From: Candidatus Porifericomitaceae bacterium
Lineage (GTDB): Bacteria; Pseudomonadota; Gammaproteobacteria; Porifericomitales; Porifericomitaceae
Length of the DNA: 64,000 nucleotides
Reading direction: 5' to 3'
Assembly: GCA_965212005.1 (NCBI GenBank)
Contig: OZ243038.1
Location: 1,601,440 to 1,665,439 of the forward strand
Positions 7,473-58,415 of the stretch are shown here, piece after piece (within the stretch, counting starts at the first letter, position 1; every line of letters begins with the position of its first letter). A program made the position numbers and the translations under genes. Under the pieces are notes generated by a model. That model was not told where the DNA came from. It was given only the letters and a program-made list of their open reading frames with translations, and ran no database searches.

Positions 7473-7477
7473 CTGCG

Positions 7478-18968: not shown

Positions 18969-18990
18969 CGGCGACCGGGAACGGCAAGCC

Positions 18991-20574: not shown

Positions 20575-20612
20575 AACAAAAAACCCGCGTCAGTCTTCAC
20601 TAAAGCGGGTTC
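20575..20612 (-). terminator. intrinsic terminator inside the metZ 5' leader (attenuator; possible SAM-responsive riboswitch expression platform)
   Basis: Minus-strand acccgc-N16-gcgggt followed by TTTTTTG, ending ~75 nt upstream of the metZ GTG; no upstream minus-strand gene for it to terminate. Confidence 0.45.
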
Positions 20613-20849
20613 CACTCTCTTTAGCGGTATTTCTAAAGCGCCCGCAAGCTGAAATCAAATCAGCGCTATGCCTATTAAGCTCTCCCCCGTCGCAAAGCAC
20701 CAACGGGCCGGAGCAAGATGATGTACGCTAGTTTAGACGCCGCTTACGGTTCTGTCAACTGGCTAGCTATTCTTAACCATGGTCCTCCCTGCAGGACGGT
20801 GGGACCGCGGCTGTCGGCAGCTCCTGTCTTAAGGGATTTACAATACAGC

Positions 20850-42052: not shown

Positions 42053-43148
42053 TCCGGCGCTTGAGCTGAACGGGCTCAGCTTGCGCTATGGCAGGCAGGT
42101 GGTCATCCGCGACCTGAGCCTTACGCTCTCCTGCGGTGAAATCGGCTGTGTGCTGGGTGCCAGCGGGTGCGGCAAAACAACGCTGTTGCGGGCCATTGCG
42201 GGCTTGGAGCGACCCTGCCAGGGCCAGGTCCGGCTGCACCGGCAGCTCCTGAGCGGGGACGACCATTTGGTTGCCCCGGAGCGCCGGGGCATTGGCATGG
42301 TGTTTCAGGACTGTGCGCTGTTCCCTCATCTGCGGGTGGACGAGAACATCGTCTTCGGCATCAACGCCGGCGCGCAGCAGCAGCGCCGGCGCCTGGAGGA
42401 GTTGGCTGTCATGCTGGGTCTGCAGCCGCTGCTGCACAAGTATCCCCACCAGATTTCCGGCGGGCAGCAGCAGCGGGTGGCCCTGGCCCGGGCCATTGCG
42501 CCAGGACCGGTGCTTTTATTGTTGGATGAACCCCTCAGCAGCCTGGACCCGGAATTGCAGGAGCACCTGGCCCATGAACTGTGCGCCTTGCTTAAGCACG
42601 AGGGGATCACCGCGCTGATGGCCAGCCACAATCAGCAAGAGGTATTTGCCATGACCGATCGTTTGGGCGTGATCCGGGACGGCCAACTGCTGCAATGGGG
42701 CACGCCCTTCCAAGTGTATCATCGCCCCGAGCACATCTACGTGGCTGACTTTGTCGGTGAGGGCAGTCTGTTACCGGGCCGCGTGCTGGACGCCAGCCGG
42801 GTGCAGACCTCGCTAGGCACCATCGCTGATGACAAGCCGCACGGCTTTCCGGTTGGCGCGGCGGTGCGTGTGCTGATTCGGCCGGATGACGTGCTGCATG
42901 AAGATCACAGCGAGTTAAAGGCAATCGTCGTAGACAAGGTTTTCCGCGGCGCTACTTTCCTCTACACGCTCGCCTTGGACAATGGCGATCAAGTATACAG
43001 CCTGATACCAAGCCATCACGATCACGCACTGAACGAACCCATCGGCATCCGCCTGGAGATAGATCACCTGGTGGTGTTCCCGGCGGCCGATCCCCCGGTT
43101 TCTCCGAGCGCCGCCGAGGGTGTGCCGACCGCACCGGAGGGAGCATAG
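42033..43148 (+). CDS. fbpC: iron(III) ABC transporter ATP-binding protein
   Basis: Walker A GASGCGKTT, signature ISGGQQQRVALARA, Walker B LLLDEPLSSLD; C-terminal TOBE-like domain. Confidence 0.9.
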   Translation: MFDREANPALELNGLSLRYGRQVVIRDLSLTLSCGEIGCVLGASGCGKTTLLRAIAGLERPCQGQVRLHRQLLSGDDHLVAPERRGIGMVFQDCALFPHLRVDENIVFGINAGAQQQRRRLEELAVMLGLQPLLHKYPHQISGGQQQRVALARAIAPGPVLLLLDEPLSSLDPELQEHLAHELCALLKHEGITALMASHNQQEVFAMTDRLGVIRDGQLLQWGTPFQVYHRPEHIYVADFVGEGSLLPGRVLDASRVQTSLGTIADDKPHGFPVGAAVRVLIRPDDVLHEDHSELKAIVVDKVFRGATFLYTLALDNGDQVYSLIPSHHDHALNEPIGIRLEIDHLVVFPAADPPVSPSAAEGVPTAPEGA

Positions 43149-43485
43149 CCCGCAGGGTCGCGGAAATCACTGCCGCCGGCGCCGATGCCAGATCCGGTAT
43201 AACGCGGTGGGAAAGTCGGCAGGACCCCCTGAGTACAGATATGAGAGAATAGAAACCCGTATACGGAGCTGCGAAGGTGTAAGGGCTCCCGTTCCTGCAG
43301 GGCTGCGGCGGCACGGTACGCGTTGCCGCGCTCGGCAACGGACGAGGTATGGAACGCCGGAGAGCAGCAATCCTTAATTTACGTTCCGGTCCGGATCTGC
43401 TCTGGATGAATGATCCAGGGACCTGAACGCATCAGAACTGCGTGCCGCGCAGTTAGAAGTTATCGCAACTGGAGAGGTAGACAAT

Positions 43486-43983
43486 ATGGCAACCGTTACT
43501 TTGCATGGAACTGAGATACATACCAATGGGGAGCTTCCCCGGGTGGGTGTTCAGGCGCCGGAGTTTCATTTGGTGGACAAGGACTTAAAAGACGTCTCAT
43601 TGAAGGATTACACGGGCAAGAAGGTGCTGAGCGTGGTGCCCAGCCTGGATACCCCGGTGTGTGCGACCTCCGCTCGTAGATTCAACCAGGAAGCTGCCTC
43701 CCTGTCACAGGTTCAGGTGCTGGTAATCTCTGCCGATTTGCCTTTTGCGATGGGTCGCTTTTGCCAGGCCGAAGGGCTCTCCCACGTGATCCCGCTGTCG
43801 ATGATGCGCTCACGCCAATTCGCCGAGGACTACGGTGTGCTGATCGTGGATGGAGCATTGCGGGGGATCAGCGCCCGGGCGCTGCTGGTGCTGGACGAGT
43901 CCAACCGCGTGATATTTTCCCAACTGGTCCCGGAGATCGGCGATGAACCGGATTACGCCGAGGCGCTGAAGGCTCTTGCCTGA
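43486..43983 (+). CDS. tpx: thiol peroxidase (atypical 2-Cys peroxiredoxin)
   Basis: 165 aa; peroxidatic Cys motif SLDTPVCATS; MATVTLHG N-terminus. Confidence 0.95.
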   Translation: MATVTLHGTEIHTNGELPRVGVQAPEFHLVDKDLKDVSLKDYTGKKVLSVVPSLDTPVCATSARRFNQEAASLSQVQVLVISADLPFAMGRFCQAEGLSHVIPLSMMRSRQFAEDYGVLIVDGALRGISARALLVLDESNRVIFSQLVPEIGDEPDYAEALKALA

Positions 43984-44356
43984 TCGCAAGGGGGCGAAGC
44001 TGGATGGGAGGGGGCACGGCGTCCGTCTGTATAAGGCGCTGCGCTATTCCGGGCAGGGACTGCATGCCGCCTGGATGCGGGAAGTTTCTTTCCGCCTGGA
44101 AATCTGGTTTTCGCTCGCGATACTGCCGCTCGCCTTTCTGCTGGGCGGGACCGGCACAGAGAAAGCGCTGCTGGCCGGTTCGTGGCTACTGGTTCCTATT
44201 GCCGAACTTTTCAATTCGGGCTTGGAGATTATCGTGGATCTCTATCAGCCGGATCCGCATCCGCTCGCAGGGCAAGCCAAGGACATCGGCTCTGCGGCCG
44301 TGTTTCTGGCTCTATTGTGCTGTGTGTTGACCTGGTGCCTGGTCCTGCTCTTTTAG
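43976..44356 (+). CDS. dgkA: diacylglycerol kinase
   Basis: ~120 aa, 3 TM; RLYKALRYSGQGLHAAW and ELFNSGLEIIVD motifs of DgkA. Confidence 0.85.
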   Translation: MPDRKGAKLDGRGHGVRLYKALRYSGQGLHAAWMREVSFRLEIWFSLAILPLAFLLGGTGTEKALLAGSWLLVPIAELFNSGLEIIVDLYQPDPHPLAGQAKDIGSAAVFLALLCCVLTWCLVLLF

Positions 44357-45157
44357 GTTCTTTGCGTCCGCTTCCCCGGTACCGCAAACCAGGCATCCGG
44401 GATCCCGGGGCAGGCGAACGATTTGCAAGTCCATACGTAACGCATCGACGAGCAGCAATCGCCCCCTAAGCGGCTGCCCGATCCCCAGCAGCACCTTCAG
44501 AGCCTCCATGGCTTGCAGGGCGCCGACGATCCCGAGCAAGGGAGCGGCTACCCCGATGGCGTCGCAGGTCTCCCGCGTATCCTCATGTGTCGCGTCGTAC
44601 AGGCAGTGGTAGCAAGGACAGCATTCATCCCGCGGATCGAACACGCTGAGCTGCCCCTCAAAGCGAATGGCGGCCCCATAGACTAAAGGCGTGTTGAGTT
44701 TCCTGCAGACACGGTTGATCGCAAAGCGGCTGGCGAAGCTGTCGGTGGCATCGATCACCACATCGGCGCGACCCACCTCGGATTCCAGCTCCGGGTCGGG
44801 GAAACGCCGGGAAATGGGGCGCAGGCGCACCTCAGGGTTTAACTGCTCCAAGTGCGCCCGGGCGGAGTCGGTCTTGCGGGCGCCGACGTCAGCGGTGCGG
44901 TGTAGAATCTGCCTTTGCAGGTTGGATAGCTCTACCCGGTCCGCATCCGCCAGCACCATCTCGCCCACGCCCGCGGTGGCCAGGTAGATGGCGGCGGGGG
45001 AGCCCAGGCCGCCGAGCCCGATGAGCAGCACCCGGCTTTCTGCCAGCCGCAGTTGGCCCTGCAGGTCGATCTCCGGCAGCATGATTTGACGACTGTAGCG
45101 GAGCAGTTGTTGATCATCCATTGAAGGCTGCGCCGGAGTAGTCTGTTTTCTCTTCAC
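44312..45157 (-). CDS. moeB: molybdopterin-synthase adenylyltransferase MoeB/ThiF family (E1-like)
   Basis: RQIMLPEIDLQGQ ... LLIGLGGLGSPAAIYLATAGVG nucleotide-binding motif; CxxC...CxxC zinc site. Confidence 0.85.
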   Translation of the reverse strand: MKRKQTTPAQPSMDDQQLLRYSRQIMLPEIDLQGQLRLAESRVLLIGLGGLGSPAAIYLATAGVGEMVLADADRVELSNLQRQILHRTADVGARKTDSARAHLEQLNPEVRLRPISRRFPDPELESEVGRADVVIDATDSFASRFAINRVCRKLNTPLVYGAAIRFEGQLSVFDPRDECCPCYHCLYDATHEDTRETCDAIGVAAPLLGIVGALQAMEALKVLLGIGQPLRGRLLLVDALRMDLQIVRLPRDPGCLVCGTGEADAKNLKEQDQAPGQHTAQ

Positions 45158-45345
45158 CTGTGATTCCTCTCTTTAGGGGGTGGGCATAAGCCCTCGCCCT
45201 GCAGCTGACCGGCGAGGGTGCGGGGTGGACGTCTGCGCCGGGACGCGGACGCTCCCTGTCCCCACTATTGTGCATCTTACGGCCCAATTCGCCGCCTCGC
45301 CAGGCCGTGCGTTCATTTGCGCCCGTGCGGACCCGTCCATCAACT

Positions 45346-46200
45346 GCCGCGTGCGGCGGTCTCTCCTGCCCGCCCTCGTGCCGGGACCGGTGACGTTTAC
45401 TCTGATCGGTCGGTCCGCACCCCGGTCATGAAGGGGCAGCAGCGCGCCGGCGCTTGCGTCCTGTTGGCCGGGAGCCGGGGTCGCCGCATGGCTCCGATTG
45501 TCTATTTGGCGTTGGTTCGTTCCAGGTGCCGTTTCCACTGCGGGCTCTGTTGATCCGCGTGCGGCGGTCTCTCCTGCCCGCCCTCGTGCCGGGACCGGTG
45601 ACGTTTACTCTGATCGGTCGGTCTGCCCCCCGGTGATGAAGGGGCATCGGCGGTCCGTCGCATGAGCTCTGTTTGCCGGGAGCCGGGACCGCCGCATGGC
45701 TCCGCTTGTCTATTTGGCGTTGGTTCGTTTCCAGTGCCATTTCCACTGCGGACTCTGTCAATCCGCGTGCGGCGGTCTCTCCTGCCCGCCCTGGCGCAGG
45801 GTCCGGTGACGTTTACTCTGATCGGTCATTCCGCCCCCCGGTGATGAAGGGGCATCGGCGGTCCGTCGGCTTGCGCTCTGTTGGCCGGGGTCCGGGCACG
45901 CCGCATGGCTCCGCTTGTCTATTTGGCGTTGGTTCGTTCCAGGTGCCGTTTCCACTGCGGACTCTGTCGATCCGCGTGCGGCGGTCTCTCCTGCCAGCCC
46001 TGGCGCAGGGTCCGGTGACAGTTACTCTGATCGGTCGGTCCGCCCCCCGGTCATGAAGGGACAGCGGCGGTCCGTCGGCTTGCGCTCTGTTGGCCGGGAG
46101 CCGGGAATGCTGCCTGCATCCGCTTGTCTATTTAGCGTTGCCGCGTTTCAAGTGCCGTTTCCACTGCGGACTCCGTCGATCCGCGTGCTGCGGGGGTTGG
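45346..46200. repeat. tandem array of ~208-bp repeat, about 4.2 copies, noncoding
   Basis: Unit begins ccgcgtgcggcggtctctcctgcccgccct... at 45346, 45555, 45763, 45971 and (degenerate) 46181; copies ~90% identical; ORF-track fragments in several frames and both strands are repeat artefacts. Confidence 0.9.
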
Positions 46201-46688
46201 CAACGGATATAGGCCGAATGCAGGTAGCCGGCCCAACTGGGAACGTTGCTAAGCTGCTCCTGCAGGTTCTGCTCGATCAGCCTGCGCCAGCGGTACCGGA
46301 ACCGGTCGCAATACGGGTAGCCAAGCCGCAGCCCGGCATCGGCACAGCGCAATCGGATTTGCCTGAAGTTTGTTTTACGCAAGTCATAACGCAGTTTGAT
46401 CTCGGTTGAGACGGGAAAGGAATATTCCTCCAAGCCCTCGATCTGCGCCAAAATCTGGGCCGGATCCGTCTTTGGCGCACGGGGGTCTGCAGCGCTGATC
46501 CGCACCTGCAGGCAACGCATCATGACGAGGAAGCGCCACCGTCGAAACCGCCTTTGACGGTGCCTTGCTTCGGGGCCTCCTGCTCGCCGATCGGCGGACA
46601 GGAAGCCCCGATCACTCTCTGGGGTCGCGAAAGAGCCCGCATCGGTTTGTCTGTTGATGCAACGGGGCCAGGCCGATCGAATCGGCAT
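46128..46688 (-). CDS. hypothetical protein downstream of prmC (3' end overlaps the degenerate terminal repeat copy)
   Basis: 186-aa ORF, Arg-rich, no recognised domain; tandem with prmC (18-bp gap). Confidence 0.3.
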   Translation of the reverse strand: MPIRSAWPRCINRQTDAGSFATPESDRGFLSADRRAGGPEARHRQRRFRRWRFLVMMRCLQVRISAADPRAPKTDPAQILAQIEGLEEYSFPVSTEIKLRYDLRKTNFRQIRLRCADAGLRLGYPYCDRFRYRWRRLIEQNLQEQLSNVPSWAGYLHSAYIRCQPPQHADRRSPQWKRHLKRGNAK

Positions 46689-46705
46689 TCAGCAAGAACC
46701 ACCGC

Positions 46706-47590
46706 TCAGTCTCCCGGCGCCTGAGCGGCACTGACGCGTTCCCACCCGGCCAGATCGCGATCCGTGCGGATATTCCGGTAGCTGTGTTGCTTCATCCACC
46801 CGCGCAGCGCCGCTCCCTGGCTTCCGTCGTGCTCCAGCAGCAGCCATCCGCCCGGCTTAAGCAGCGGCAGACTATCCGCGATGAGGGCGCGCAAGGAATC
46901 CAGGCCGTCCCTCCCTCCGTCCAGGGCCAGCCGTGGTTCAAAACGCAGGTCTGCCTGTTGCAGACTGACGTCTTCACTGCGCACGTACGGCGGATTGCTC
47001 AGGATCAAATCGAAGCGTTGTCCCCGCAGCGGCTGCAGCCAGTCGCCTTGCCGGAACTGTACCGCAACGGTCGGCAGCAGCCGGCGCAGGTTCCGGCGTG
47101 CCACCCGCAGTGCCTCAGAACAGAGGTCAGTGGCCAGAATGCGGGCCTGCGGGCGCTCCTTGGCCAGCGCCGCCGCGACCGCCCCGCAACCGGTGCCGGG
47201 TTCTGCAATGCGCCAGGGAGCCTCGATGGGCAGCAGCTCCAGTGCCCGCTCCACCAGCAACTCGGTTTCCGGTCGCGGGATCAGCGTATGTCGGTTCACT
47301 TCAAAGCGGAGCGACCAGAATTCACGTTCCCCCAGCAGGTAGGCGATCGGCCAGCCTGCTGCCCGGCGCCGCACCAGGGTCCAGTAGTGATCGGCCCGGG
47401 CCGGCGCGACCCGCTTCTCAGGATGCGCGTAGAGTTCGGTACGGCGCCATCCCAGCTCCCGCCCCAGCAACAACTCTGCCTCCAATCTCGCTACCGTGGT
47501 CCCGGCGGCCAATGCCGTACTCCCCAGCGCAAGCAGCCGGGCCACTGTATGAGCAGGGGCGGCGGACAGGCTACGGTCTACAGAATTCAC
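46706..47590 (-). CDS. prmC: peptide chain release factor N5-glutamine methyltransferase
   Basis: 294 aa; NPPY motif (LILSNPPYV); SAM-binding GTGCGAVAAAL. Confidence 0.9.
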   Translation of the reverse strand: MNSVDRSLSAAPAHTVARLLALGSTALAAGTTVARLEAELLLGRELGWRRTELYAHPEKRVAPARADHYWTLVRRRAAGWPIAYLLGEREFWSLRFEVNRHTLIPRPETELLVERALELLPIEAPWRIAEPGTGCGAVAAALAKERPQARILATDLCSEALRVARRNLRRLLPTVAVQFRQGDWLQPLRGQRFDLILSNPPYVRSEDVSLQQADLRFEPRLALDGGRDGLDSLRALIADSLPLLKPGGWLLLEHDGSQGAALRGWMKQHSYRNIRTDRDLAGWERVSAAQAPGD

Positions 47591-47776
47591 CTAAGGAACC
47601 TCTGGTCAATTCGTAAAAACATGGGGGTCAAGGTAAAACGTTCTTTGATGATTGAGCTATGGGGTATTGTCGCCGATTTTCACTCGGCTAAAACAGCCCT
47701 TTCCTCACCGTATCCGGGACTTTTCTTCCCCCGCTGACGTTTTTCAGGCGCAACCTGCTTGCAATGTCAGCCGCTT

Positions 47777-48100
47777 TCACCTCGGCAACCGGCTCCTGGC
47801 CATCACCCGATGACTCAACGCACAGGCCACAACCAGGCGATGCGCATTCTTATTCAGTCTCCGGTAGCGCACTTTGGAGAAGCCAACCCGGTGCTTGATA
47901 ATGCCAAACTGAGGTTCCACCTTGGCCCGGCCCCGGGATTTGTTCCGGTTTCGGGAACGCGCCTGGTCCGGCAACAGTCGGTTTCTACGGCCCTTTGCCG
48001 GTATGAAATCCTTTGCGCGCAGAGCACAAGCGGTGATGGCTTCCTTCCGCCCCGTATAGGCGGAATCATCCCAGACCCGGGTCTCCCTTCCGTATAGGAC
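47777..48100 (-). pseudogene. IS5-family transposase, C-terminal fragment (N-terminally truncated)
   Basis: GRAKVEPQFGIIKHRVGFSKVRYRRLNKNAHRLVVACAL matches the IS5 DDE C-terminal block (VEHxFGxxKRxFGFxKVRYRGLAKN). Confidence 0.6.
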
Positions 48101-48196
48101 AAATATTTTTAATAGGATAAAACCGTTGAACGCAAAGGGGATAACGGTTATCTTGCTGCTGGCAACTGCGATCCTTTGGCCTTGGAGAAAACGCAA

Positions 48197-48667
48197 ATGA
48201 AGCTATACAAATTACCTCTCCTGTTCATCCTGGCCTACTCCTCTTCCCTATGGGCCGAAGGAGGACGTCACGAGCCCCAGGCCACTGAAGTCAAGGTAAG
48301 CCTTGGCACTGCTGCCGGGGAAATAAAATTTGTGCCGGATACCCTTTCCTTTGAACGAGGCAAATACTACAAACTCGTGCTGCATAACCCCAGCTCGGAG
48401 GAGCATTACTTTACATCAGATGCTTTTTCGACCCATATCTTTACCAGGAAGGTTGAAGTCACGGATAAATCCGGCAAGACCATCGCGGAAATACACGGCG
48501 CTGTTAACGACATTGAACTTAAACCCGGCGCAACCGTTGAATGGTTTTTTTATCCCATGACAAAGGGGAAAAACCTGCGGCTGTATTGCCATAAAACCGA
48601 CCATGAAGAACAAGGCATGGTAGGCACCATCAACATAAGCGGCGACTTGTCTGCTGTCGGAAGATAG
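48197..48667 (+). CDS. cupredoxin-like (type-1 blue copper) periplasmic protein
   Basis: Signal peptide MKLYKLPLLFILAYSSSLWA; ligand pattern His (LVLHNPS) ... C-x2-H-x4-M (YCHKTDHEEQGM). Confidence 0.65.
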   Translation: MKLYKLPLLFILAYSSSLWAEGGRHEPQATEVKVSLGTAAGEIKFVPDTLSFERGKYYKLVLHNPSSEEHYFTSDAFSTHIFTRKVEVTDKSGKTIAEIHGAVNDIELKPGATVEWFFYPMTKGKNLRLYCHKTDHEEQGMVGTINISGDLSAVGR

Positions 48668-48868
48668 AAAGGTACGACTACCCAGTTCAATCGGTTATCG
48701 GGCACCGACCGCGTGTTCGAAGCAAGGGCTGCAGGATAAGATATTTTTATCTCTTTTTGAATGGCTGCCCAACAAGGGGAAGGTCACTTTAACGACCACA
48801 CGCTCCCATAGTCAACGTCGGAGTAGGTCATTGAGGCATGGATCATCAATCCTAGCATCCGGTGCCTA

Positions 48869-48885
48869 ATCATCCAGACTCGAAT
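48869..48885. repeat. 17-bp perfect direct repeat atcatccagactcgaat, copy 1 (partner 49996-50012), bracketing mrr
   Basis: Exact 17-mer found twice, 1127 bp apart, immediately downstream and ~160 bp upstream of mrr. Confidence 0.7.
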
Positions 48886-48890
48886 TTAGA

Positions 48891-49835
48891 TCAACTCTGG
48901 TCAAAGAAGTCTCCATCAATCGTTTTCACTTCATAGGTGTCGCGAACTTGCACACCGACGTTGTGCTTGTACATCAAATCGACCAATTTATCCCCGTCAA
49001 TGAGGATTATTGAGTAGGCCGCTTGACGCGCTTTTTTCAGTGCGTTATCACGAAAATCGGAAGTCGTGACAAAAATACCTTTGTTAGTGTCGCCGCTCAT
49101 TGCGCCAATAAAATCGCGAATGTCTTTTTCACTAACATTGGTGTCCTTATAGCGTTTTGCCTGTATGTAGATTTTCTCAAGGCCAAGTTCATCTGAGTTG
49201 ATTACCCCATCGATGCCGCCGTCCCAGGATTTTGGAGTTTCAATGAAATCTCCATAGCCCATTTTCTTCAGGAGTTGCAGGATAACGCTTTCAAAATAAG
49301 AAGGATCGGTTTTATGTAATTCTTCAAGAAGATCTCTTTTGGTTTGCTCTTCTATTGTAGACAGGCCAGCATCAATTAAATCCTGTGGGGATGCCTTTCC
49401 CAGATTTACTTCTTCCTGTGGGGATGCCTCTCCCAGATTTACTTCTTTTGGATCATTCACTTTGTCTGCTTTCTTTTTTGTTTTTCGGCTGGCAACGTGC
49501 GCCAAATAATCAGGATCATCTAATAAACTTTTGTATGTTATCCTTGTTGGCAAAGAAGATTTCCCTTTTTCTGTTATTTGTATCATCCCCCGTGAAGGAG
49601 AACTCAGAAAATTTGCCATCTTTAGATAAGATATGCCCCATCTGATGCGGTCATTCAATCTATTGGCACCGGAGCTTGTTATTTCTCTGAGTACGCTCTC
49701 TGGGAGTTCAGAATAATAGTTATCACGAACTTGAAGAATCAAATCGCGTGTACTCCATTCTTGCCTATCTTTCAGGGTTTTTTTCAGGGTTTTCAGGATA
49801 GGTGTATATGTTTGGTGGTGTTTGGGTAATTCCAT
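48891..49835 (-). CDS. mrr: Mrr-family restriction endonuclease (Mrr_N winged helix plus Mrr_cat)
   Basis: 314 aa; C-terminal SWDGGIDGVINSDELGLEKIYIQAKRY (D-(E)xK catalytic core of Mrr); low GC. Confidence 0.8.
   Translation of the reverse strand: MELPKHHQTYTPILKTLKKTLKDRQEWSTRDLILQVRDNYYSELPESVLREITSSGANRLNDRIRWGISYLKMANFLSSPSRGMIQITEKGKSSLPTRITYKSLLDDPDYLAHVASRKTKKKADKVNDPKEVNLGEASPQEEVNLGKASPQDLIDAGLSTIEEQTKRDLLEELHKTDPSYFESVILQLLKKMGYGDFIETPKSWDGGIDGVINSDELGLEKIYIQAKRYKDTNVSEKDIRDFIGAMSGDTNKGIFVTTSDFRDNALKKARQAAYSIILIDGDKLVDLMYKHNVGVQVRDTYEVKTIDGDFFDQS
49381..49446. repeat. in-frame 33-bp tandem duplication inside mrr linker
   Basis: cctgtggggatgcctttcccagatttacttctt x2 (1 mismatch) giving the duplicated peptide EVNLG(E/K)ASPQE. 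Confidence 0.85.
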
Positions 49836-49956
49836 GATAGTGGTCTCCAGTTAAGTTTTCTGGTGAGAAGGAATTTGGCTGACGCATTAGAAATGAGAAG
49901 TGGATCCCATTCTCAGGATAGCCTGGTAGCGATGTTAAGGTATAGCCGGTTCATAG

Positions 49957-50358
49957 TTATGCTGTCAAAGCAAGCCAAGCTTCCGCCGGTGTCTGATCAT
50001 CCAGACTCGAATGAGGCCGCTCCGCATTAGAATACATCATCCATACGTTGCTATCATCCCGTGGCCTCTCGAACCCTTTCCAGACATCGAAGTAACAAAC
50101 TCTCAAAATCTGCGCATTATCCATTGAAGCGAAATACGACTTGGTTGTCTTCAACAAAAAATATAATCGGCTTAGGGAAAAGCGTTCTGCCAATCTATGT
50201 GTCGCGGCGGCAATTGACACCGCACCCGCCCCACAAAATGGATCGAGCAGGCATCGGACGTCGGACGGAAACCACGGGAGGATGTATTGCGCAATGCGCC
50301 GTTTGCTTCCCCGATAGGGGAACGGGTGCGCGACATTAAGAGCGAAAACCATCGACAT
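49957..50358 (-). pseudogene. chimeric remnant: N-terminal fragment of a Dam-family N6-adenine DNA methyltransferase fused in frame to the tail of an IS3/rve-type transposase
   Basis: PFPYRGSKRRIAQYILPWFP...LLDPFCGAGAV (Dam motif I region) followed by ...VWMMYSNAERPHSSLDDQTPAEAW (integrase-core C-terminal signature). Confidence 0.5.
49996..50012. repeat. 17-bp direct repeat, copy 2
   Basis: See copy 1; lies within the transposase-tail coding remnant (encodes HSSLDDQ). Confidence 0.7.
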
Positions 50359-51040
50359 GATCCGAACTGCCGGCTCCCCTGTTGCGAGGACGTTTTATCG
50401 AAGACGAGAAACTGGACTTCTTATTTTTAATTGCCTTTACATGCTGAACATGAGCCCTGTTGTTTTTAATGTTAGCTCGCAGTCGGACTTTGCTGATTTT
50501 AGCGATGGTTTTCCTGATTTCCGTATTGGAAAGAATAGATTCGGTTTGAGACTTTATAAAACGTATAAGCCCGCCAGCATGGGTAACATTGCTTGGCATA
50601 TTTGTTTTGAAAGTGCTGTCGCCTACAAATACTACAACAGAAAATAATTTACTTTCGTGCATATTCAAACACGAAGATAATACTTTGATATGTTTGTAGT
50701 TCTGATGCAGAGGGTTTTGGAATGTGTATGTATGCTTGAATATCTTCTGAGTCCATTGTTTCTGACGAGCGGACCCAAAAATCCATCCTTTCATATTTTT
50801 TGTTTCGACCACAAAGATTCCATGTCTTGAAATAATGATGTGATCAATCTGGGTGCTCCCGTCCTCCGTTGGAAGCATTACATTCTTGAGTAGTTGATAT
50901 TTTTTTTTATCAAGCTGGAGCGAAAGTGCGACATTAACAATAAATTCACCCAATACCCCTTTGAACCAAGCAGTCTGTACAATCCCAATGATAATGAGAA
51001 AGAGAGAAGGTGCCAGTATGAGAAATGCTCCGATGCTCAT
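50336..51040 (-). CDS. NERD (nuclease-related domain) protein with N-terminal TM helix
   Basis: QIDHIIISRHGIFVVETKNMKGWIFG is the NERD core. Confidence 0.7.
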   Translation of the reverse strand: MSIGAFLILAPSLFLIIIGIVQTAWFKGVLGEFIVNVALSLQLDKKKYQLLKNVMLPTEDGSTQIDHIIISRHGIFVVETKNMKGWIFGSARQKQWTQKIFKHTYTFQNPLHQNYKHIKVLSSCLNMHESKLFSVVVFVGDSTFKTNMPSNVTHAGGLIRFIKSQTESILSNTEIRKTIAKISKVRLRANIKNNRAHVQHVKAIKNKKSSFSSSIKRPRNRGAGSSDHVDGFRS

Positions 51041-51071
51041 ATTAGTCGCATGAAAGCCCCATCGAGGGTGG

Positions 51072-51599
51072 CTAAGCGCTCATCTCCGTGAAGGTTGGCT
51101 CGTCGGCACCGCTCAATGCGACCTTCTTGGCAGGCTTGCTAGAGAGCTTTTTCAGTACATCTGCGAGCTCTGTTCTCGCACGTTGCAAGTTGATCTCATC
51201 CACAAAAGGTCGATCCACGCCCTCCTCGGCAGTGCTGATGTCCTTCTTCAACCTGGTCAAGGTCTTCCTTTGCTCCTGGCTGCTCTCGATGAGGCGTAAA
51301 TGCAAGCTGCGCAGGCAATTGTCCATCGACATCATTGCGCATCTCCAAGAGACGACGTGAATGTTTGCAGCAAGTCGCAATCCGTTGCCATGAGCTCCTT
51401 TCGGATGCCGACATTGGACGGGTCCTGCATGTATACAGATAGTTGCGCCCCCTTCTCTGCCAGGGTGCTTTGAGGCTCGGGATTCCCAGTCATGGGAGGG
51501 GAGCATAGCATCTGTGGGCAAGGAATCCAGGAATCCCGAGTAGTTCACTTGGCCCCTTGTCCAAATTTTTGGGTCTACTTCTGAAGTTGTGGTCGCCAC
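51072..51599 (-). CDS. hypothetical protein (possibly shorter, from internal MSMDN...)
   Basis: ORF only; C-terminal ~85 aa predicted helical/coiled coil; higher GC than its neighbours. Confidence 0.25.
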   Translation of the reverse strand: MATTTSEVDPKIWTRGQVNYSGFLDSLPTDAMLPSHDWESRASKHPGREGGATICIHAGPVQCRHPKGAHGNGLRLAANIHVVSWRCAMMSMDNCLRSLHLRLIESSQEQRKTLTRLKKDISTAEEGVDRPFVDEINLQRARTELADVLKKLSSKPAKKVALSGADEPTFTEMSA

Positions 51600-51746
51600 G
51601 TTTGAGCCTGCTGAATCATGCAGGCGAAATAGCGATAACCAGCATTTTCATTCGCCTTTTTAATCGCGTGTTACTTTGTAGCAATCACCTGCAAAGACTC
51701 AAAGTGATGCCTTTACAGACCGGACGTGAGTGCAAGGGGGCGCAGT

Positions 51747-52814
51747 TTACTGCGACCGAGTGCGTTGACTGGTCATATTTTTTACCAGGTTAAGTTGCCA
51801 GATTTTTTCCGCCCTGGCCCCCAGGTACCAGAAGCTCAGAGCCAGCAGTGCAAAAAATACAGCTTTATGGGTGCCATCCCAGAAATATTCGAAGAACCTT
51901 GTATAAAGATTGATGAAGATAAAGGTTAAACCAAAGCCTCGGGTCATTCCGTTATCAAATTTTACGCCGTGAAAGATGCTTATAATTGATGCCGCACCAA
52001 AAACGATCGACCAGTGGAACAATTCTATTTGTTTTACTCTTTCCCACGATTCCATATCACCATAATTCCCGAAAATAGAGATGATCCAAAGCGCAATAAA
52101 GAGATAGAGCAAACCAACGGCTCGTGTTGGTTTCAGGAATTCATTTCGACTCGGCCAATGATTAAAAACATATTCGCCAACGAAAATGAGGGCTGAACCA
52201 AACAGTACGAAACGCAACGGATAATTCATGCCGAGATAGTACGCTCCCCAGCCTGAAGCGTAACCCGTTTCAGCCCCAAACCAACTGCCTAAGGAGAGCA
52301 GGGAAAATAACCAGACCAGTTTAGACGGAAACCATAGTCCCAACAGGGCATAAATGATGGCCGCCAGCAGCAATAAAACAGAGAAATGGCCGGAACCGGT
52401 ATCTATTACTTTGCCCAAAAATACAATGGCTGTGGCGGTAGCGACAATGCCTAAAAAGAATATGGCTTCATTGCTGTAAATCTTCTCCGGAAATCTACCC
52501 TTTCTTTTAAAGCCAAGGAAATATAGAAAGCTCGCCAGCATGGCGAAACTCGCACACTTGACCCCATCAGGCACGTTAAACAATCGCTTAAATAGCTCAA
52601 CGAGCCATTCATCCGCCAGTGCGGATGCTATGGAAATAACGATGCAGGCAATGGCCAGCCAGAAGGAATATCTTGCCGTGCGCTTCCAGTCAAACGGCGT
52701 GACTTCATAGGAATGCTTAAGTTTCTGTGATTCCTGCCCGGAAATAATCCCGGCATCAAGCCAGTTCTGAATAGCCGTGCTCAGTATGCGCCCTTCTTTT
52801 TTTGAAACTTGCAT
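51747..52814 (-). CDS. DUF2157-like polytopic membrane protein
   Basis: 355 aa, ~10 TM helices, soluble N-terminal region; low GC. Confidence 0.55.
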   Translation of the reverse strand: MQVSKKEGRILSTAIQNWLDAGIISGQESQKLKHSYEVTPFDWKRTARYSFWLAIACIVISIASALADEWLVELFKRLFNVPDGVKCASFAMLASFLYFLGFKRKGRFPEKIYSNEAIFFLGIVATATAIVFLGKVIDTGSGHFSVLLLLAAIIYALLGLWFPSKLVWLFSLLSLGSWFGAETGYASGWGAYYLGMNYPLRFVLFGSALIFVGEYVFNHWPSRNEFLKPTRAVGLLYLFIALWIISIFGNYGDMESWERVKQIELFHWSIVFGAASIISIFHGVKFDNGMTRGFGLTFIFINLYTRFFEYFWDGTHKAVFFALLALSFWYLGARAEKIWQLNLVKNMTSQRTRSQ

Positions 52815-53000
52815 TCAGTTTTAATCCTTGTAAATCTAACGATTATACTCATCGTGGCGCAGGGGTTCCCCGGATTTTTGTTAAGTTTGCCTTTGTCCAT
52901 GCGTAACCCACAGAGTCTATTTCTAACGGACAGATCCTAATTTTTTAGCCCCTTTCAGAGGCAGCGGTCGTCACGCTGATATCGGGAAAATCGCCGACGA

Positions 53001-53112
53001 AATATGATACCCTAGGCGGATGCCCCAACTCGAATACATTGAAGCCCTAGAAAAACGGTTGTGGCCCGCCGCGGACACCTTGCGCGCGAACTCCAACTAC
53101 GACCGATTCTGA
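53001..53112 (+). pseudogene. duplicated 5' end of hsdM (30-codon remnant, [30 protein letters not shown]) plus its upstream 12 bp
   Basis: ~93% identical over ~100 bp to 55094-55198 (start of the intact hsdM); the pair flanks the darTG cassette. Confidence 0.65.
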
Positions 53113-53122
53113 AGATCAGACG

Positions 53123-53782
53123 GTGGAGGAACTAAAAACCTTGACGACACCGGTACCTGCTGATCCCAAAATCTATCATATTGTCCATGTAGATCGGTTG
53201 CCTTCAATTATTACTGAAGGTGGTCTTTGGTGTGATTCGGAGATTGCGCAACGCAAGCGACCGGGATCAGTCATCGGCATGAATAATATCAAACAGAGAC
53301 GGCTTAATCTACGCTTGAGTAGCCGCCCTGATTTATATGTTGGGAATTGCGTTCCCTTCTATTTTTGTCCTCGTTCTATCATGCTTTACATGATCCATAT
53401 AAAAAGCCCTGACTTGTCCTACACTGGTGGGCAAGAAACTATTGTCCATTTGGAGGCATACGTTAAAGAGTCTGTGTCATGGGCGGAACAGAATGAAACA
53501 CGTTGGGCTTTTACTTCGTCAAATGCTGGCGCATGTACCTTTGATGACTATTGTGACCTGGGTGAATTGAATAAAATTGATTGGACAGCCGTGCAGGCAA
53601 AACAATGGGTAGATCATAAGTACGGTAAACAGGCGGAATTTCTGTTGGAAAGTTACTTTCCATGGGAATTAATAAAACGTATTGGTGTATATTCAGAGTC
53701 AATCTATTGTCAAGCGGTCAAAGCATTTCTTGCCAATAGTCACCGTCCACAAGTAAAGATAATAAAAGCTTGGTATTATTAA
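53123..53782 (+). CDS. darT: DarT ssDNA thymidine ADP-ribosyltransferase toxin (DUF4433)
   Basis: IYHIVHVDRLPSIITEGGLWC N-terminal motif; catalytic QAEFLL motif; C-terminal ...WYY. Confidence 0.8.
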   Translation: MEELKTLTTPVPADPKIYHIVHVDRLPSIITEGGLWCDSEIAQRKRPGSVIGMNNIKQRRLNLRLSSRPDLYVGNCVPFYFCPRSIMLYMIHIKSPDLSYTGGQETIVHLEAYVKESVSWAEQNETRWAFTSSNAGACTFDDYCDLGELNKIDWTAVQAKQWVDHKYGKQAEFLLESYFPWELIKRIGVYSESIYCQAVKAFLANSHRPQVKIIKAWYY

Positions 53783-53798
53783 TAGAAGGGCGACAACG

Positions 53799-54860
53799 AT
53801 GATCGAATACAAGCGCGGTGATCTTCTGAAAGAAGATACCGAAGCGATTGTTAATACGGTGAATTGCGTCGGTGTTATGGGTCGAGGTATCGCGCTTCAA
53901 TTCAAAAAATACTTTCCGCAAAACTTCAAGGCATACGCGGCTGCCTGCAAGCATAAAAAAGTGCGGCCCGGGCGAATGTTCACCTTTGAGATCGGCGAGT
54001 TGACTAATCCCCAATACATCATCAATTTCCCGACCAAACGGCATTGGCGAGGAGCAAGCCGAATAGAGGATATCGAATCCGGCTTGCATGCGTTGGTCGA
54101 AGAAATCAGAAAGCACAAGATCCGATCTGTCGCCATTCCTCCGCTGGGCAGCGGTCTAGGTGGACTGGACTGGCAACAGATTCGCGCCCGAATAGATACA
54201 ATTCTTGGGGAAATCGATGAGGTTCAGATCATCGTCTATGAGCCGGAAGGCGCACCGGAAGCGGGCAGAATGGTGCGCAATCGCAAGGTTCCGAAAATGA
54301 CCTCGGGGAGAGCGGCACTCGTCAGTTTGATGCACCGTTACCTTGCTGGCCTGCTTGACCCGTTTGTGACATTGCTGGAAGTGCATAAACTGATGTACTT
54401 CCTGCAGATTGCGGGGGAACCATTAAAATTAAACTACGAAAAAGCCCTTTACGGCCCCTACGCCAAAGACCTTCGACATGTACTCAACCATATTGAGGGG
54501 CACTTGGTGTCCGGTTACGCAGATGGTGGCGATATGCCCAACAAGGAATTAAAACTGGTGCCGGGCGCACTGGAGGACGCGAACAAATTTCTCAGGAATA
54601 AAGCGAAAACCCGAGCGCGCCTTGAAAAAATTTCTGGCCTTGTTGAGGGATTTGAATCACCGTTTGGCCTGGAATTACTATCCACGGCTCACTGGATCAT
54701 AAACAACGAATCGCCTCAATCCATTGATGACGTTATTGACAAAACCTATGCCTGGAACGAGCGTAAGAAGCAGTTTTCACCGCGTCAAATTCGGTTGGCT
54801 TGCGATGTATTGGCAAAACAGGACTGGATAGAAGCCAGCTTAACCGGCCAACCCGAATAA
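53799..54860 (+). CDS. darG: DarG antitoxin (N-terminal macrodomain, C-terminal DarT-binding domain)
   Basis: Macrodomain signature AIVNTVNCVGVMGRGIALQF ... IPPLGSGLGG; 17-bp gap after darT. Confidence 0.8.
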   Translation: MIEYKRGDLLKEDTEAIVNTVNCVGVMGRGIALQFKKYFPQNFKAYAAACKHKKVRPGRMFTFEIGELTNPQYIINFPTKRHWRGASRIEDIESGLHALVEEIRKHKIRSVAIPPLGSGLGGLDWQQIRARIDTILGEIDEVQIIVYEPEGAPEAGRMVRNRKVPKMTSGRAALVSLMHRYLAGLLDPFVTLLEVHKLMYFLQIAGEPLKLNYEKALYGPYAKDLRHVLNHIEGHLVSGYADGGDMPNKELKLVPGALEDANKFLRNKAKTRARLEKISGLVEGFESPFGLELLSTAHWIINNESPQSIDDVIDKTYAWNERKKQFSPRQIRLACDVLAKQDWIEASLTGQPE

Positions 54861-55108
54861 AGTGTCAATGAGTTGCAGAGCATGCATTATTTATACGATC
54901 AAGTGTCGGCGCTGTTCTGGATGACTGGAAAACAAGCGGTTGCCGCACATTCAGGTCGAAGATGGACTGGGCCACACAACGTTATTCCGTTACCCCTACC
55001 CGATTGAAACCTTGCGGTTCGGATCCGTATCACTTTCCACCCCGGTGAGGAGCGTTTCGAGGTGTGCAATCCGGCGATGCAAACCTTAAAAATACGGTAC
55101 CCTAGGCG

Positions 55109-57218
55109 GATGCCCCAACTCGAACACATCGAAGCCATTGAAAAACGGTTGTGGACCGCCGCGGATACCCTGCGCGCGAACTCCAACTACGCCAGCAACG
55201 AGTATTTCCTGCCGGTCATGGGGCTGCTTTTCCTGCGCCATGCGTACAGCCGTTTCCTGGCTGTCAAAGTCGGGATTGAGAAGAATCTGCCCACCCGTGG
55301 CGGTAAACCCCGGGCGTTGATTAAGGAGGACTTCTCCCAACTAGGCGCGATTTTCCTCCGGCCCAAAGCGCAGTTTGCTCGTTTGGTGGCGTTGCCCGAT
55401 GGTAAAGATCGCGCCAAAGCCATCATTGAGGCGATGGAATTCATCGAGAAGGACTACAGCAACTTGCGCGGCATCCTGCCCAAGAAAGAATACCAGGACT
55501 TAAGCAACGACGTCCTCGGCCAGTTGCTGCGCACGCTCAACCCCGATGAGTTGAAAAAAGTATCGGGCGACGTCTTCGGTCGTATCTACGAATATTTTCT
55601 GGCCAAGTTTGCCGACCAGAAAGCCCACGACAATGGCGAATTCTTCACGCCCGTTTCACTGGTGTCACTGATCGCCCATGTGCTGGACCCCGAGGGCGGC
55701 ACGGTGCTCGATCCGGCCTGCGGTTCCGGCGGCATGTTCGTGCAGAGCGCGCGCATCGTCGAGGAGCACGGTCAAAACCCCATCGACCGGCTCACCTTCC
55801 GCGGCCTTGAGAAGAACGCCACCACCATTCGCCTCGCCAAGATGAACCTCGCCGTCCACGGCCTGGAGGGGAATATTCAGAAAGCCATCACCTACTACGA
55901 AGACCCGCACGATCTGCGCGGCAAAGCCGATTTCGTCATGGCCAATCCCCCGTTCAACGTGGACGAGATTGACGCGGACAAAGTCAAGACCGACCCGCGT
56001 CTGCCTTTCGGTCTGCCTGGCGTGAGCAAAAAGGACAAGGTCAGCAACGGCAACTACGTCTGGATCAGTTACTTCTACAGTTACCTGAGCGCCAAGGGAC
56101 GCGCCGGTTTTGTCATGTCCTCCCAGGCCTCCAGCGCCGGGGGCGGTGAAGCACAGGTGCGGCGGAAACTGGTGGAAAGCGGCGATGTGGACGTCATGAT
56201 CGCGATTCGCTCCAACTTCTTCTACACCCGCACCGTGCCCTGCGAATTGTGGTTCTTGAACCGCGCCAAGCCGAAGGAACATCGCGACAAGGTGCTGATG
56301 ATTGATGCGCGCAACGTCTACCGGAAGGTCACGCGCAAAATCTACGACTTCAGCCCGGAGCAGCAGCAGAACCTGCTGGCCATCGTTTGGCTTTATCGCG
56401 GCCAGACCGACAAATATCTCGGCCTTGTGTCCGGCTACTGCGCCAGAGTCATCGCGGAAAGCGCGGCCTGTTTTACCGCCGCGAATGAGGAAAGCGAATC
56501 AATCCAACCGCTGCCGGATTTCCTCGCCGCGCTCACCGCCCTGCACAATACGCTGGAACCGTTTCTCAAGACCCTTAACCCCAAAGATGCTCATGCCGAA
56601 ACACACAAGGAACTGATGGATGCCCTTCCCGCCTTTGAAGCGGACGTGGGGGCCTTCCGCAAAGCGGTTGCCAAACAGCAGACGGCATGGGCAAAACAAA
56701 AAACCAATAACGGCGCACTCAAAAAAGCGGTAGCTCGACTTGCGCCACTGGCTGAATCAAGCCGCGACCTGGTCAAACAGACCGATCTGCTCTACAAACT
56801 CGCTTCGCGCCTTGTCGAAACCTGCGAACAGTCCGCCAAGACCAACGGCACCCGGATCGACAAGGAAGTTGCCCGCGCCCGCAAAGCCGCTGATGAGTCC
56901 AGACGGCAAGCCGTGGAACAACTCAAACAGGTGCACTACTTTTGGCGGCAAGCGCACTGGCTCACCAAGCGTTTCCCCGACGCCGAACTGCGCGACGTGG
57001 AAGGGCTGGTCAAACTGGTTGACCGCAAAGAGATTGAAGCAAACGACTGGAGCCTGACCCCCGGCCGCTACGTCGGCGTTGCGCCGGAAGAAGAAGACGA
57101 GAACTTTGATTTTGAGGAAACGATGCGGGACCTCCACACCGAGTTGAAAGCACTCAACGCCGAAGCAGCCACGCTGGCGGCGGCCATTGATAAGAATTTT
57201 AAGGAAATGGGGATATGA
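55109..57218 (+). CDS. hsdM: type I restriction-modification system DNA methyltransferase subunit M
   Basis: HsdM_N motif [15 protein letters not shown]; SAM motif [10 protein letters not shown]; catalytic NPPF (VMANPPFNV); C-terminal [11 protein letters not shown]. Confidence 0.9.
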
Positions 57219-57740
57219 GCGGCGATAGAAAAATCGTCATCATCGCCGGCCCCAACGGTGCGGGTAAAACGACGTTCGCACGGGAATTCCTGCCCAAAGA
57301 ATCCGGCTGTTTGATTTTTATCAACGCCGACCTGATCGCAGGTGGCCTGTCTCCCTTTCAACCGGAAGCCGCCGCCATCCGTGCCGGGCGGCCTGATGCT
57401 GCAACAAATTGACAACTACGTAAAAAAGGGTGAAAGTTTTGCCTTTGAAACAACGCTTGCGAGTCTTGGGTACGTAAAAAAGATAAAAAAGTGGCGTGCA
57501 GTAGACTATAAGGTCAAACTGATTTTTTTGTCGCTTGCAACGCCCGAAGAGGCGACTAACCGAGTAAAATCACGTGTGGCGCAGGGTGGACACCCTATTC
57601 CAGAAGCCATAATACGCCGCCGATTTTCCAACGGCTTGAATAATTTTGAAAACATCTATCGCCACTGTGTGGATTATTGGCAACTCATCAATAACAGCAG
57701 TGCCATCCCGATCCTGATTGAGAAAGGAGAAAACCCATGA
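57215..57740 (+). pseudogene. zeta-toxin-like / AAA ATPase gene, split by a single-base frameshift near 57395
   Basis: ORF 57215-57412 ([19 protein letters not shown]...NADLIA...AAIRAGR) and ORF 57342-57740 (...[24 protein letters not shown]...) are contiguous in homologues; an extra C in the run gggcggcc shifts the frame; ATG overlaps hsdM stop. Confidence 0.6.
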
Positions 57741-57925
57741 AAAAACAAACTAGGCGCACTGCCATCGAGGATGACCCGGATATGCAAGGCGTCATGCCCG
57801 CTCTCCTCCGCGCGGCTAAACAGGCTCACAAAATTGCCCACCAGACAGGCACTAAAATTGTCATCATGCGCGACGGCAAGGTCGTGCACGTCCCCCCGGA
57901 CCCGGCGATGTATGAGGATATTTAA
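57737..57925 (+). CDS. small hypothetical protein (62 aa), translationally coupled (ATGA) to the preceding gene
   Basis: ORF only; could be an antitoxin-like partner of the zeta-like ATPase. Confidence 0.3.
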   Translation: MKKQTRRTAIEDDPDMQGVMPALLRAAKQAHKIAHQTGTKIVIMRDGKVVHVPPDPAMYEDI

Positions 57926-57956
57926 ACTTGGTTGGGCATGAAGAAAAATTGCAGAT

Positions 57957-58415
57957 ATGAGCAAAGCGCCGCCATACACGATCACCCCGCACATTCTCAC
58001 CCGCATTGAGCAAATCGGTGAAGCGATTGGCCGTGCGGAGGCGGCGGGCGTTTCACAGGATATGCGCTTGCGGCACATCAATCGCATCCGCACGATTCAC
58101 GGTACGCTTGCCATGGCGGGCAATGCCCTCAGCGTGGAACAAGTCGCCGCAATTTTCGATACAATGCATACCCCCCAAGAAGCCCCCCAAGTAACCTCCC
58201 AAGTAGAACGCTTGCTGTCGGTGCTTAAAGGTAAAGGGGAAATGTCACGGCAGGAAATCCAGCAGGCGATTGGGTTGAAAGACCGCAAGTCATTGCGGGA
58301 GCGGTATCTGTTGCCTGCATTACAAGGCGGATATATTGAAATGACGCAACCTGATACGCCTAATGCCAGGAATCAGAAGTATCGGCTTAGTTCGCGTGGG
58401 AGGGGGATGCGGTGA
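57957..58415 (+). CDS. Fic-family protein remnant: N-terminal helices and C-terminal winged helix retained, catalytic HPFx(D/E)GNGR core deleted in frame
   Basis: N-terminus ITPHILTRIEQIGEAIG...HGTLAMAGNALS and C-terminus LKDRKSLRERYLLPALQGGYIEMTQPDTPNARNQKYRL match RM-associated Fic proteins, but the total is only 152 aa. Confidence 0.5.
   Translation: MSKAPPYTITPHILTRIEQIGEAIGRAEAAGVSQDMRLRHINRIRTIHGTLAMAGNALSVEQVAAIFDTMHTPQEAPQVTSQVERLLSVLKGKGEMSRQEIQQAIGLKDRKSLRERYLLPALQGGYIEMTQPDTPNARNQKYRLSSRGRGMR

Follow-up and report, generated by a model that had tools for sequence, protein, structure and literature searches.

Between prmC and moeB, two genes encoding a release-factor glutamine methyltransferase and a ThiF-family adenylyltransferase in a gammaproteobacterium of the family Porifericomitaceae, lies a block of long head-to-tail repeats, and the question is where this block came from and whether it serves the genes around it. 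The first-pass annotation of the locus had described a unit of 208-210 bp in about 4.2 copies at roughly 90% identity, and had proposed a satellite-like, variable-number locus suited to strain typing, a repeated protein-binding platform or a repeated structured RNA. In the following, the window is the whole stretch of DNA analysed (64,000 nt of contig OZ243038.1), to which all positions refer unless stated otherwise. Tandem Repeats Finder, applied to positions 43000-49000, returned a single array (period 209, 4.1 copies, 89% matches, score 1293) without indel-rich structure, which confirmed the periodicity. By alignment the array consists of four full head-to-tail copies of 208-209 bp (c1 to c4, counted from the moeB side) and the 13-nt start of a fifth, i.e., 4.06 copies, and no unique sequence lies between the units, as is typical of tandem duplications and minisatellites. 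Compared pairwise and in register, the copies are 84.2-90.4% identical, so that the earlier description of period, copy number and identity proved close. The features of the locus are listed in Table 1.

Table 1. Features of the prmC-moeB region (positions in the window; a dot marks features without strand assignment).
Feature	Position	Strand	Basis or remark
moeB, ThiF-family adenylyltransferase; follows the array on the coding strand	44312..45157	-	PF00899, E 1.4e-74; homologues named MoeB
Unique 189-nt spacer, array to moeB, unrelated to the unit	45158..45346	.	Sequence reading, flank comparison
Whole tandem array, four units and a 13-nt partial fifth	45347..46193	.	Tandem Repeats Finder, blastn self-matches, alignment
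Copy c1, 208 nt, edge copy closest to moeB	45347..45554	.	Alignment; 10 private changes
Copy c2, 208 nt	45555..45762	.	Alignment; 7 private changes
Copy c3, 209 nt	45763..45971	.	Alignment; 4 private changes
Copy c4, 209 nt, edge copy	45972..46180	.	Alignment; 14 private changes
Partial fifth copy, 13 nt, CCGCGTGCTGCGG	46181..46193	.	12/13 identical to unit start CCGCGTGCGGCGG (45347-45359)
Silent pseudo-tail, c2/c1 junction, PPHADQQSPQWKRHLERTNAK, stop	45502..45567	-	Junction translation
Silent pseudo-tail, c3/c2 junction, PPHAD, stop, QSPQWKWHWKRTNAK, stop	45710..45775	-	Junction translation; internal stop
Silent pseudo-tail, c4/c3 junction, PPHADRQSPQWKRHLERTNAK, stop	45919..45984	-	Junction translation
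Native C-terminal tail PQHADRRSPQWKRHLKRGNAK and stop, inside the array	46128..46193	-	Motif common with relatives; identical in second strain
Small conserved gene, 131 aa (186 aa if from ATG 46688)	46128..46523	-	Homology to relatives
182-nt spacer, prmC to 131-aa start of the small gene	46524..46705	.	Strain comparison
prmC, release-factor glutamine methyltransferase, upstream operon gene	46706..47590	-	Pfam PrmC_N and MTS

Among the four copies 46 of the 209 columns are variable, the only indel is of a single nucleotide, and the edge copies are richest in private changes. The first unit, compared by blastn with the whole window, recovered the three further copies, all other matches being no longer than 17-25 nt. 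The array differs from its surroundings in composition (66.7% GC vs 55.3% for the window) and is asymmetric between the strands, with about 8% A and about 25% T on the plus strand. Adjacent double substitutions within one copy were observed eight times against 1.7 expected (P=0.0002), an excess that points to multi-nucleotide mutational events or to very short conversion patches from lost sources. CRISPR repeats are usually about 21-48 bp long and separated by unique spacers of similar length. With such loci the array has only the regular spacing in common, whereas its unit is longer, its whole 208-bp period is repeated (84-90%) and spacers are lacking, and the earlier exclusion of CRISPR holds for these reasons.

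A coding repeat was considered and rejected, since the period of 208/209 is not a multiple of three and no reading frame is conserved across the units. In all units one plus-strand frame is free of stops from column 109 up to column 82/85 of the unit that follows, and long open frames on this strand follow from the low A content, which makes stop codons rare. ATG-initiated ORFs on the minus strand are broken by the indel or missing from some copies, and nearly all differences between the copies change an amino acid or break the frame. The ORFs inside the array are artefacts, as had already been suspected for both strands.

Both edges of the array are sharp when the flanks are compared with the unit in register. 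The left flank (45138-45346) shares 54 of 209 positions with the unit, which is chance level (null 59 +/- 6), and to the right the first 13 nt match at 12 of 13 positions while over the following 32 nt the identity falls to chance. The flanks were also considered as degenerate extra copies, and this was discarded: local alignments of either flank on either strand stayed within the range of shuffled sequences, and the in-register identity is that of chance. When the final 40 nt of the left flank were aligned to the unit with gaps allowed, the result was marginal (P ~0.05), and we claim no relationship from it. The adjoining unique spacer holds an 8-bp hairpin at 45191-45218, and a purine-rich, Shine-Dalgarno-like motif, GAGAGGAA, can be read directly from the sequence five bases ahead of the GTG start of moeB. 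The duplicated segment is thus bounded by a 13-nt direct repeat (12/13), which is the usual signature of illegitimate recombination, and an integer number of copies followed by a near-perfect repeat of the unit start is as expected after duplication between short direct repeats.

The key to the array is its overlap with the small gene that lies between prmC and moeB on the same minus strand as both, because the unit contains the native 3' end of this gene. The 131-aa form of its product matches P0001, the form recorded for this genome, at 100%. No Pfam family matches the protein. In the distant relative L006, a 134-aa ORF with which it shares 32% identity (E 8e-16) is located between prmC and moeB. 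Among 1.84 billion representative proteins, searched exhaustively with HMMER, only P0124, P0125 (the L006 ORF) and P0126 were returned as relatives. Judged by these homologies, the small gene is a real, conserved member of a rare uncharacterised family with its place between prmC and moeB. In the same search a protein of 1614 aa with 24 matching stretches (P0123) resembled the translated repeat array at first; it is a genuine Cys-rich repeat protein which matches the 'RCADAG...' stretch only and is irrelevant here. The spacer between prmC and the 131-aa start diverges by 5.4% between two strains, mostly by changes that would alter amino acids if it were read as part of the 186-aa ORF. This spacer is probably non-coding, which makes the longer, 186-aa reading an artefact of annotation.

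The final 21 codons of the small gene together with its stop codon are encoded within the array, the right-hand 53 nt of c4 supplying part of the real C-terminus and the stop. A tail motif RR[SA]PQW[KR]RHL is common to the window, to the relatives L003-L005 and to P0126. Directly upstream of moeB, L003-L005 encode ...SAYAVCRRFAPASRRAPQQWRRHLQDND followed by a stop, vs ...SAYIRCQPPQHADRRSPQWKRHLKRGNAK and a stop in the window, and tblastn pairs ...VPSWAGYLHSAYIRCQPPQHADRRSPQWKRHLK of the window with ...LPSWRAYLQSAYAVCRRFAPASRRAPQQWRRHLQ of L003 (53% identity over 34 aa, E 2e-5). P0126 contains ...ERAQHWRRYL... and ends in ...ERAQHWRRYLSRTEGPP. By phmmer, the 131-residue query aligns up to residue 120 with P0124 and up to residue 128 with P0126. 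BLASTP homology to the L006 protein ends at residue 165 of the 186-aa reading, which corresponds to nt 46194 and thereby exactly to the array boundary; given the shared motif, the 21 residues beyond this endpoint, whose codons lie in the 13-nt partial copy and at the right end of c4, are native all the same. Since the tail motif is common with the relatives, the unit can be resolved into 63 nt of coding tail, the stop codon and about 145 nt of 3' flank. Each of the three internal unit junctions carries a decayed copy of the tail, and the small gene is intact because the rightmost copy alone is joined to the gene body. An origin of the unit from the 5' end of moeB was rejected, as the MoeB N-terminus found nothing better in the array by tblastn than a match of E 0.28 on the wrong strand. 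These observations modify two points of the first-pass annotation: the array does lie between prmC and moeB, although it is not purely intergenic, and its terminal copy does run into an ORF, which is however not hypothetical but a real conserved gene with its native 3' end in the unit. The window holds a second tandem duplication (19165-19305, 74 nt x 1.9, 100% identical), which likewise spans the stop codon of a gene.

Comparison with relatives dates the expansion to this lineage. Upstream, prmC overlaps the small gene or directly adjoins it in L006, L007 and L008, where moeB follows the small gene within 0-15 nt, and in L003-L005 only the C-terminal 34 codons of the small gene are left, ending at the moeB start, with a prmC-moeB gap of about 155 nt. 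In the window, about 970 nt separate the stop codon of the small gene from the start of moeB. The array is absent from all more distant relatives recovered, and the ~970-nt gap is confined to this lineage, an isolated gammaproteobacterial one whose nearest MoeB from outside is 70% identical. Neither the 145-nt non-coding part of the unit nor the 189-nt spacer has a counterpart in the relatives. This lack of a counterpart, together with a transposase fragment and a variable defence island situated just upstream of prmC, would fit a mobile or dispersed remnant (MITE, REP or IS fragment) which entered the gap between the small gene and moeB and was amplified afterwards. We regard such an origin as very improbable. 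The unit has no terminal inverted repeats, its sole inverted repeat being 11 nt long at 82%; blastn found no other copies of the unit or of the spacer in the 64-kb window and no match to the unit in the plasmid collection. A conserved 20-mer pattern of the unit, GTGCGGCGGTCTCTCCTGCC, occurs in one Lentzea contig of the genome collection (20 nt only) and one contig of the metagenome collection (23 nt only), both chance-length matches, and has no match in the viral collection. The suggestion that the unit might belong to a known REP or IS family is, by the missing terminal repeats and dispersed copies within the window, not borne out.

A second strain (L009) was reached via a non-identical member of the MoeB protein cluster; its locus lies on a 46.6-kb metagenomic contig and matches the window at 98.3% identity over 12.1 kb. 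Its array (positions 8965-9809 of L009, period 208, 4.1 copies) again comprises four full copies and 13 nt, so the copy number is identical in two strains (n=2) which are about 1.7-2% apart. Between the strains the orthologous copies c1 to c4 are 95.2, 99.0, 99.5 and 95.7% identical, against 84-90% for paralogues. Because the eight copies pair by position, the four-copy state well predates the split of the strains and the copy number has not changed since. A variable-number, strain-typing locus thus found no backing in the one comparison possible, with 4.06 copies on both sides. An assembly artefact, which long tandem repeats are generally known to provoke, has next to no probability here, as the copies differ by 10-16% and the independent assembly of L009 shows the same four-copy array, copy for copy; for practical purposes it is refuted.

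About 10 of the 22 inter-strain differences concern columns at which both alleles occur in paralogous copies. Columns 66-67 of c4, for example, read GG in the window and AT in L009, as in c3, and at columns 31 and 33 c4 changes to the state of c1/c2. Alleles common to paralogues in this way are the mark of short gene-conversion tracts between copies, which also explain the mosaic sharing of variants. Copies diverged by 10-16% hence still exchange short patches by gene conversion. The divergence between the strains amounts to 2.6% for the array, 2.1% for the unique spacer, 2.0% for moeB, 1.5% for prmC and 1.7% for the whole region. The central copies c2 and c3 together show three differences in 417 nt, and 19% of all 417-nt segments of the region have three or fewer. 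By these rates the array shows no extra constraint and evolves at about the local background rate.

The same data bear on the idea that the array is a store of alternative C-terminal cassettes, in which recombination between units swaps the last 21 residues of the small protein. Every junction carries a tail variant in the right order, and gene conversion between the copies does occur. However, only two to five residues distinguish the variants, one of which is interrupted by a stop codon; the two strains do not differ in the expressed tail; and a tail-swapping deletion would also lose units, yet four are kept in both strains. A cassette store is therefore barely credible.

For a repeated non-coding RNA, i.e., a small or 3'-UTR-derived RNA from each unit or a minus-strand transcript acting as a whole as a multi-site protein sponge of the CsrB/Rsm type (GGA motifs), one may cite the strand-asymmetric composition, a terminator-like hairpin on the plus strand of c1 and 30 GGA triplets on the minus strand vs 22.4 +/- 3.9 in shuffled sequences. 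The GGA excess is marginal (about 2 sd), though, and of the two sites located in the minus-strand minimum-energy fold of c3 neither is in a hairpin loop, unlike CsrA sites. Rfam 15 gave no match at E<=1 on either strand of 44000-48000, CsrB/Rsm families included, and none at gathering score in the array. Compared with dinucleotide shuffles, the fold z-scores of c1 to c4 on both strands and in shifted phases ranged from -2.1 to +1.3 with no consistent trend, so that no unit was consistently more stable than expected. The covariation term of the RNAalifold consensus was only -0.38 kcal/mol, a value of low power with four paralogues. No sigma-70-like site was found in any unit; the terminator-like site is confined to one of the four units, and c3 and c4 do not preserve the arms of its hairpin. 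Taken together, a repeated non-coding RNA of either kind is highly doubtful, and the annotation's structured-RNA proposal finds no support in the same results. Its GC-rich dyads do exist as short hairpins, but these are not conserved among the copies. Nor did its protein-binding platform gain support: neither sub-repeats nor a conserved palindrome occur inside the unit, and invariant runs reach 24 nt at most, a length not beyond chance (P=0.07).

The main rival explanation starts from the same duplicated gene end and concerns the length or copy number of the array. As a cis-acting spacer, the array might through its length or copy number tune the expression of moeB or uncouple it from the upstream prmC/small-gene transcript. 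The array does stand inside an operon-like run directly upstream of moeB, which abuts the small gene in relatives, and the copy number is equal in the two strains. There is also a precedent in Mycobacterium tuberculosis, where tandem repeats (ETR-F/VNTR3239) widen the rnc-fpg1 gap to 279-358 bp vs 6-54 bp in other mycobacteria, and a shorter repeat length goes along with lower fpg1 mRNA (PMC2734929). Against this role stand units without a promoter-like site or a consistent terminator, and an array that diverges between the strains no more slowly than its surroundings. We consider an expression spacer unlikely.

The array is best explained, with a probability of about 70%, as an old tandem duplication, now diverged, that made four copies of the small gene's 3' end and its downstream flank, and in this form the satellite-like reading survives. 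It is probably an ordinary minisatellite-like amplification that is near neutral, neutrality being argued here from the absence of signals in four paralogues and two strains, a comparison of little power. In our analyses we saw no sign that the array codes for a protein or a structured RNA, or for any mobile or defence element already known. The source piece would have been 208 bp long, reaching from 21 codons ahead of the stop codon of the small gene to about 145 nt past it, and slipped misalignment or unequal exchange between 13-nt direct repeats (CCGCGTGC-G/T-GCGG) 208 bp apart may have produced the first duplication. Unequal homologous exchange could then have expanded it to four copies. 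The rightmost copy would keep supplying the true C-terminus and stop, leaving the remaining copies as silent relics downstream. RecA-dependent recombination requires sequence identity, and the array would persist as the small gene stays intact and a divergence of 10-16% suppresses homologous deletion.

On this duplication model the array would do nothing sequence-specific and would form, together with its flanks, an untranslated spacer of about 970 nt on the operon transcript, between two genes which in relatives are contiguous, either overlapping or only 2-15 nt apart. It is probably carried on this transcript; no minus-strand terminator was found in it. No promoter for moeB was found, and for its translation moeB may rely on a ribosome-binding site of its own, 5 nt ahead of the GTG. 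As a counterpoint, identical blocks of up to 24 nt and an unchanged copy number have lasted several times longer than the time since the strain split, and such long persistence at unchanged copy number could also mean maintenance by selection. The four units would then be kept as a functional repeated element of the operon, born from the tail of the upstream gene, in which each unit might be, e.g., a 3'-UTR-derived RNA or a binding module, located on the mRNA or on the DNA, that sets the amount of MoeB. This variant we hold to be quite unlikely.

Several known systems resemble the duplicated gene end in part. In classical bacterial amplification, an illegitimate, RecA-independent first step between short direct repeats is followed by unequal crossing-over. 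The array agrees with this scheme in its bounding 13-nt direct repeat (12/13), its head-to-tail copies and the intact boundary gene; classical amplifications, by contrast, span kilobases and are near-identical and unstable, whereas the array has a 208-bp unit, is diverged and has been stable across the strain split. The Wolbachia loci VNTR-105 and VNTR-141 have intergenic, non-coding units of more than 100 bp whose copy number varies among strains, and to our knowledge no function is assigned to them. They are similar to the array in their long non-coding units and differ in that the two strains compared here show no copy-number variation and that the sequences are unrelated. Tandem sRNA arrays such as NsiR1 of Nostoc or PrrF1/PrrF2 of Pseudomonas possess a promoter and a terminator per unit and a conserved fold; the head-to-tail arrangement of non-coding units of about 100-200 nt is shared, but the per-unit signals and a conserved fold were not found in the array.

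Mycobacterial MIRU-VNTRs such as ETR-F/VNTR3239 are alike in that non-coding, lineage-confined repeats widen a tiny gap between same-strand housekeeping genes, from 0-15 bp to about 970 bp here and from 6-54 to 279-358 bp in M. tuberculosis (PMC2734929). They differ in unit length (40-100 bp vs 208-209 bp here) and in number, as MIRUs occupy 41 loci and the array is a single locus within the 64-kb window. Moreover, the array is diverged by 10-16% and lacks copy-number polymorphism in the two strains, and its unit demonstrably carries the end of the upstream gene's coding sequence. The closest analogues are accordingly the mycobacterial intra-operon minisatellites together with classical microhomology-bounded tandem duplications. 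On present evidence from two strains the array is not a strict VNTR, and within the window it is not a MIRU-like dispersed family.

For annotators, the locus carries the warning that neither the ORFs inside the array nor the 186-aa reading of the small gene is genuine. The finding is of little weight beyond this lineage, and the origin of the unit can be read directly from protein homology. It provides an example in which duplication of a gene's own 3' end widened a compact operon junction from 0-15 nt to about 1 kb and left the gene unharmed, and it shows how an array 'freezes' once its copies have diverged while short conversion tracts continue. Should further strains of this gammaproteobacterial lineage, which is uncultured or poorly sampled, come to hand, the locus could serve as a marker.

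The interval between prmC and moeB houses a family of small proteins of about 130–140 amino acids, for which no Pfam match was found and which comprises only four members among 1.84 billion representative proteins. Its genes were located in the genome studied here and in the prmC-moeB loci L006, L007 and L008 of distant relatives. Common to the family are a "RLRYDL" core and a C-terminal tail resembling RR-x-P-Q-W-R-R-H-L, whereas a CxxC motif (CRFCD) of the relatives reads YPYCD at the equivalent place in this genome. A longer reading of the small gene with 186 amino acids, annotated in one assembly, adds 55 N-terminal residues, for which no homologue was found. Between the two strains, window positions 46524–46705 diverge by 5.4%, and most of these differences would change amino acids if the stretch were translated, which is why it is probably a non-coding spacer. 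In the relatives, the small gene overlaps prmC.

Within the 208-bp array of the same region (45347–46180), adjacent multi-base changes confined to one copy are strongly over-represented: the alignment of the four full copies contains eight adjacent double or triple substitutions found in a single copy, against 1.7 expected (P = 0.0002), for example GG>AT in alignment columns 66–67, AG>GT in columns 128–129 and GTT>CCG in columns 170–172.

Further repeats of the window are listed in the table below. On the minus strand the 102-nt repeat codes for the 12 TPR units in a protein of 460 aa; an ORF of equal length across it on the plus strand is spurious. The perfect 74-nt duplication covers the stop codon and the last codons of the gene for a Cys/Met-metabolism PLP enzyme and is a young case of the same type of event as the 208-bp array. 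Just upstream of this gene lies a SAM_alpha riboswitch (Rfam RF00521, gathering score 36), whose host looks gammaproteobacterial, judged by its MoeB relatives.

Features of the window and of related loci (window coordinates unless a locus is named)
Feature	Position	Strand	Remarks
102-nt repeat	2635–3838		11.8 copies; coding
TPR protein	2638–4020	minus	460 aa
purD	17691–18968
GC-rich 32-nt repeat	18988–19058		2.2 copies, 84%; immediately downstream of purD
74-nt tandem duplication	19165–19305		1.9 copies, 100%
Cys/Met PLP enzyme gene	19247–20500	minus
SAM_alpha riboswitch	20600–20676	minus	40.2 bits
Small-protein gene	46128–46523	minus
Small-protein gene, L006	4594–4998
Small-protein gene, L007	365–787
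Small-protein gene, L008	359–787
Defence island	47600–58000		GC 0.37–0.55; L009 counterpart 1–7500
DDE transposase fragment	47777–48196		in island
Mrr	48891–49835		in island
33-nt repeat	49381–49447		2.0 copies, 97%; in Mrr-family gene region of island
Protein-kinase-like ORF	50336–51040		in island; weak similarity to kinases MAD6 and BREX PglW
DarT/DarG	53123–54860		in island
HsdM-like methylase	55062–57218		in island

Directly upstream of prmC lies a low-GC defence island, of which just two stretches (51558–52893 and 54976–55488) can be aligned with L009, the locus of the second strain. The DarT/DarG region between them is without a match in L009, where the place just upstream of prmC is taken instead by ORFs with DruA and GmrSD_N domains. 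Relatives have prfA in front of prmC; the hemA-prfA-prmC linkage is therefore interrupted in the window.
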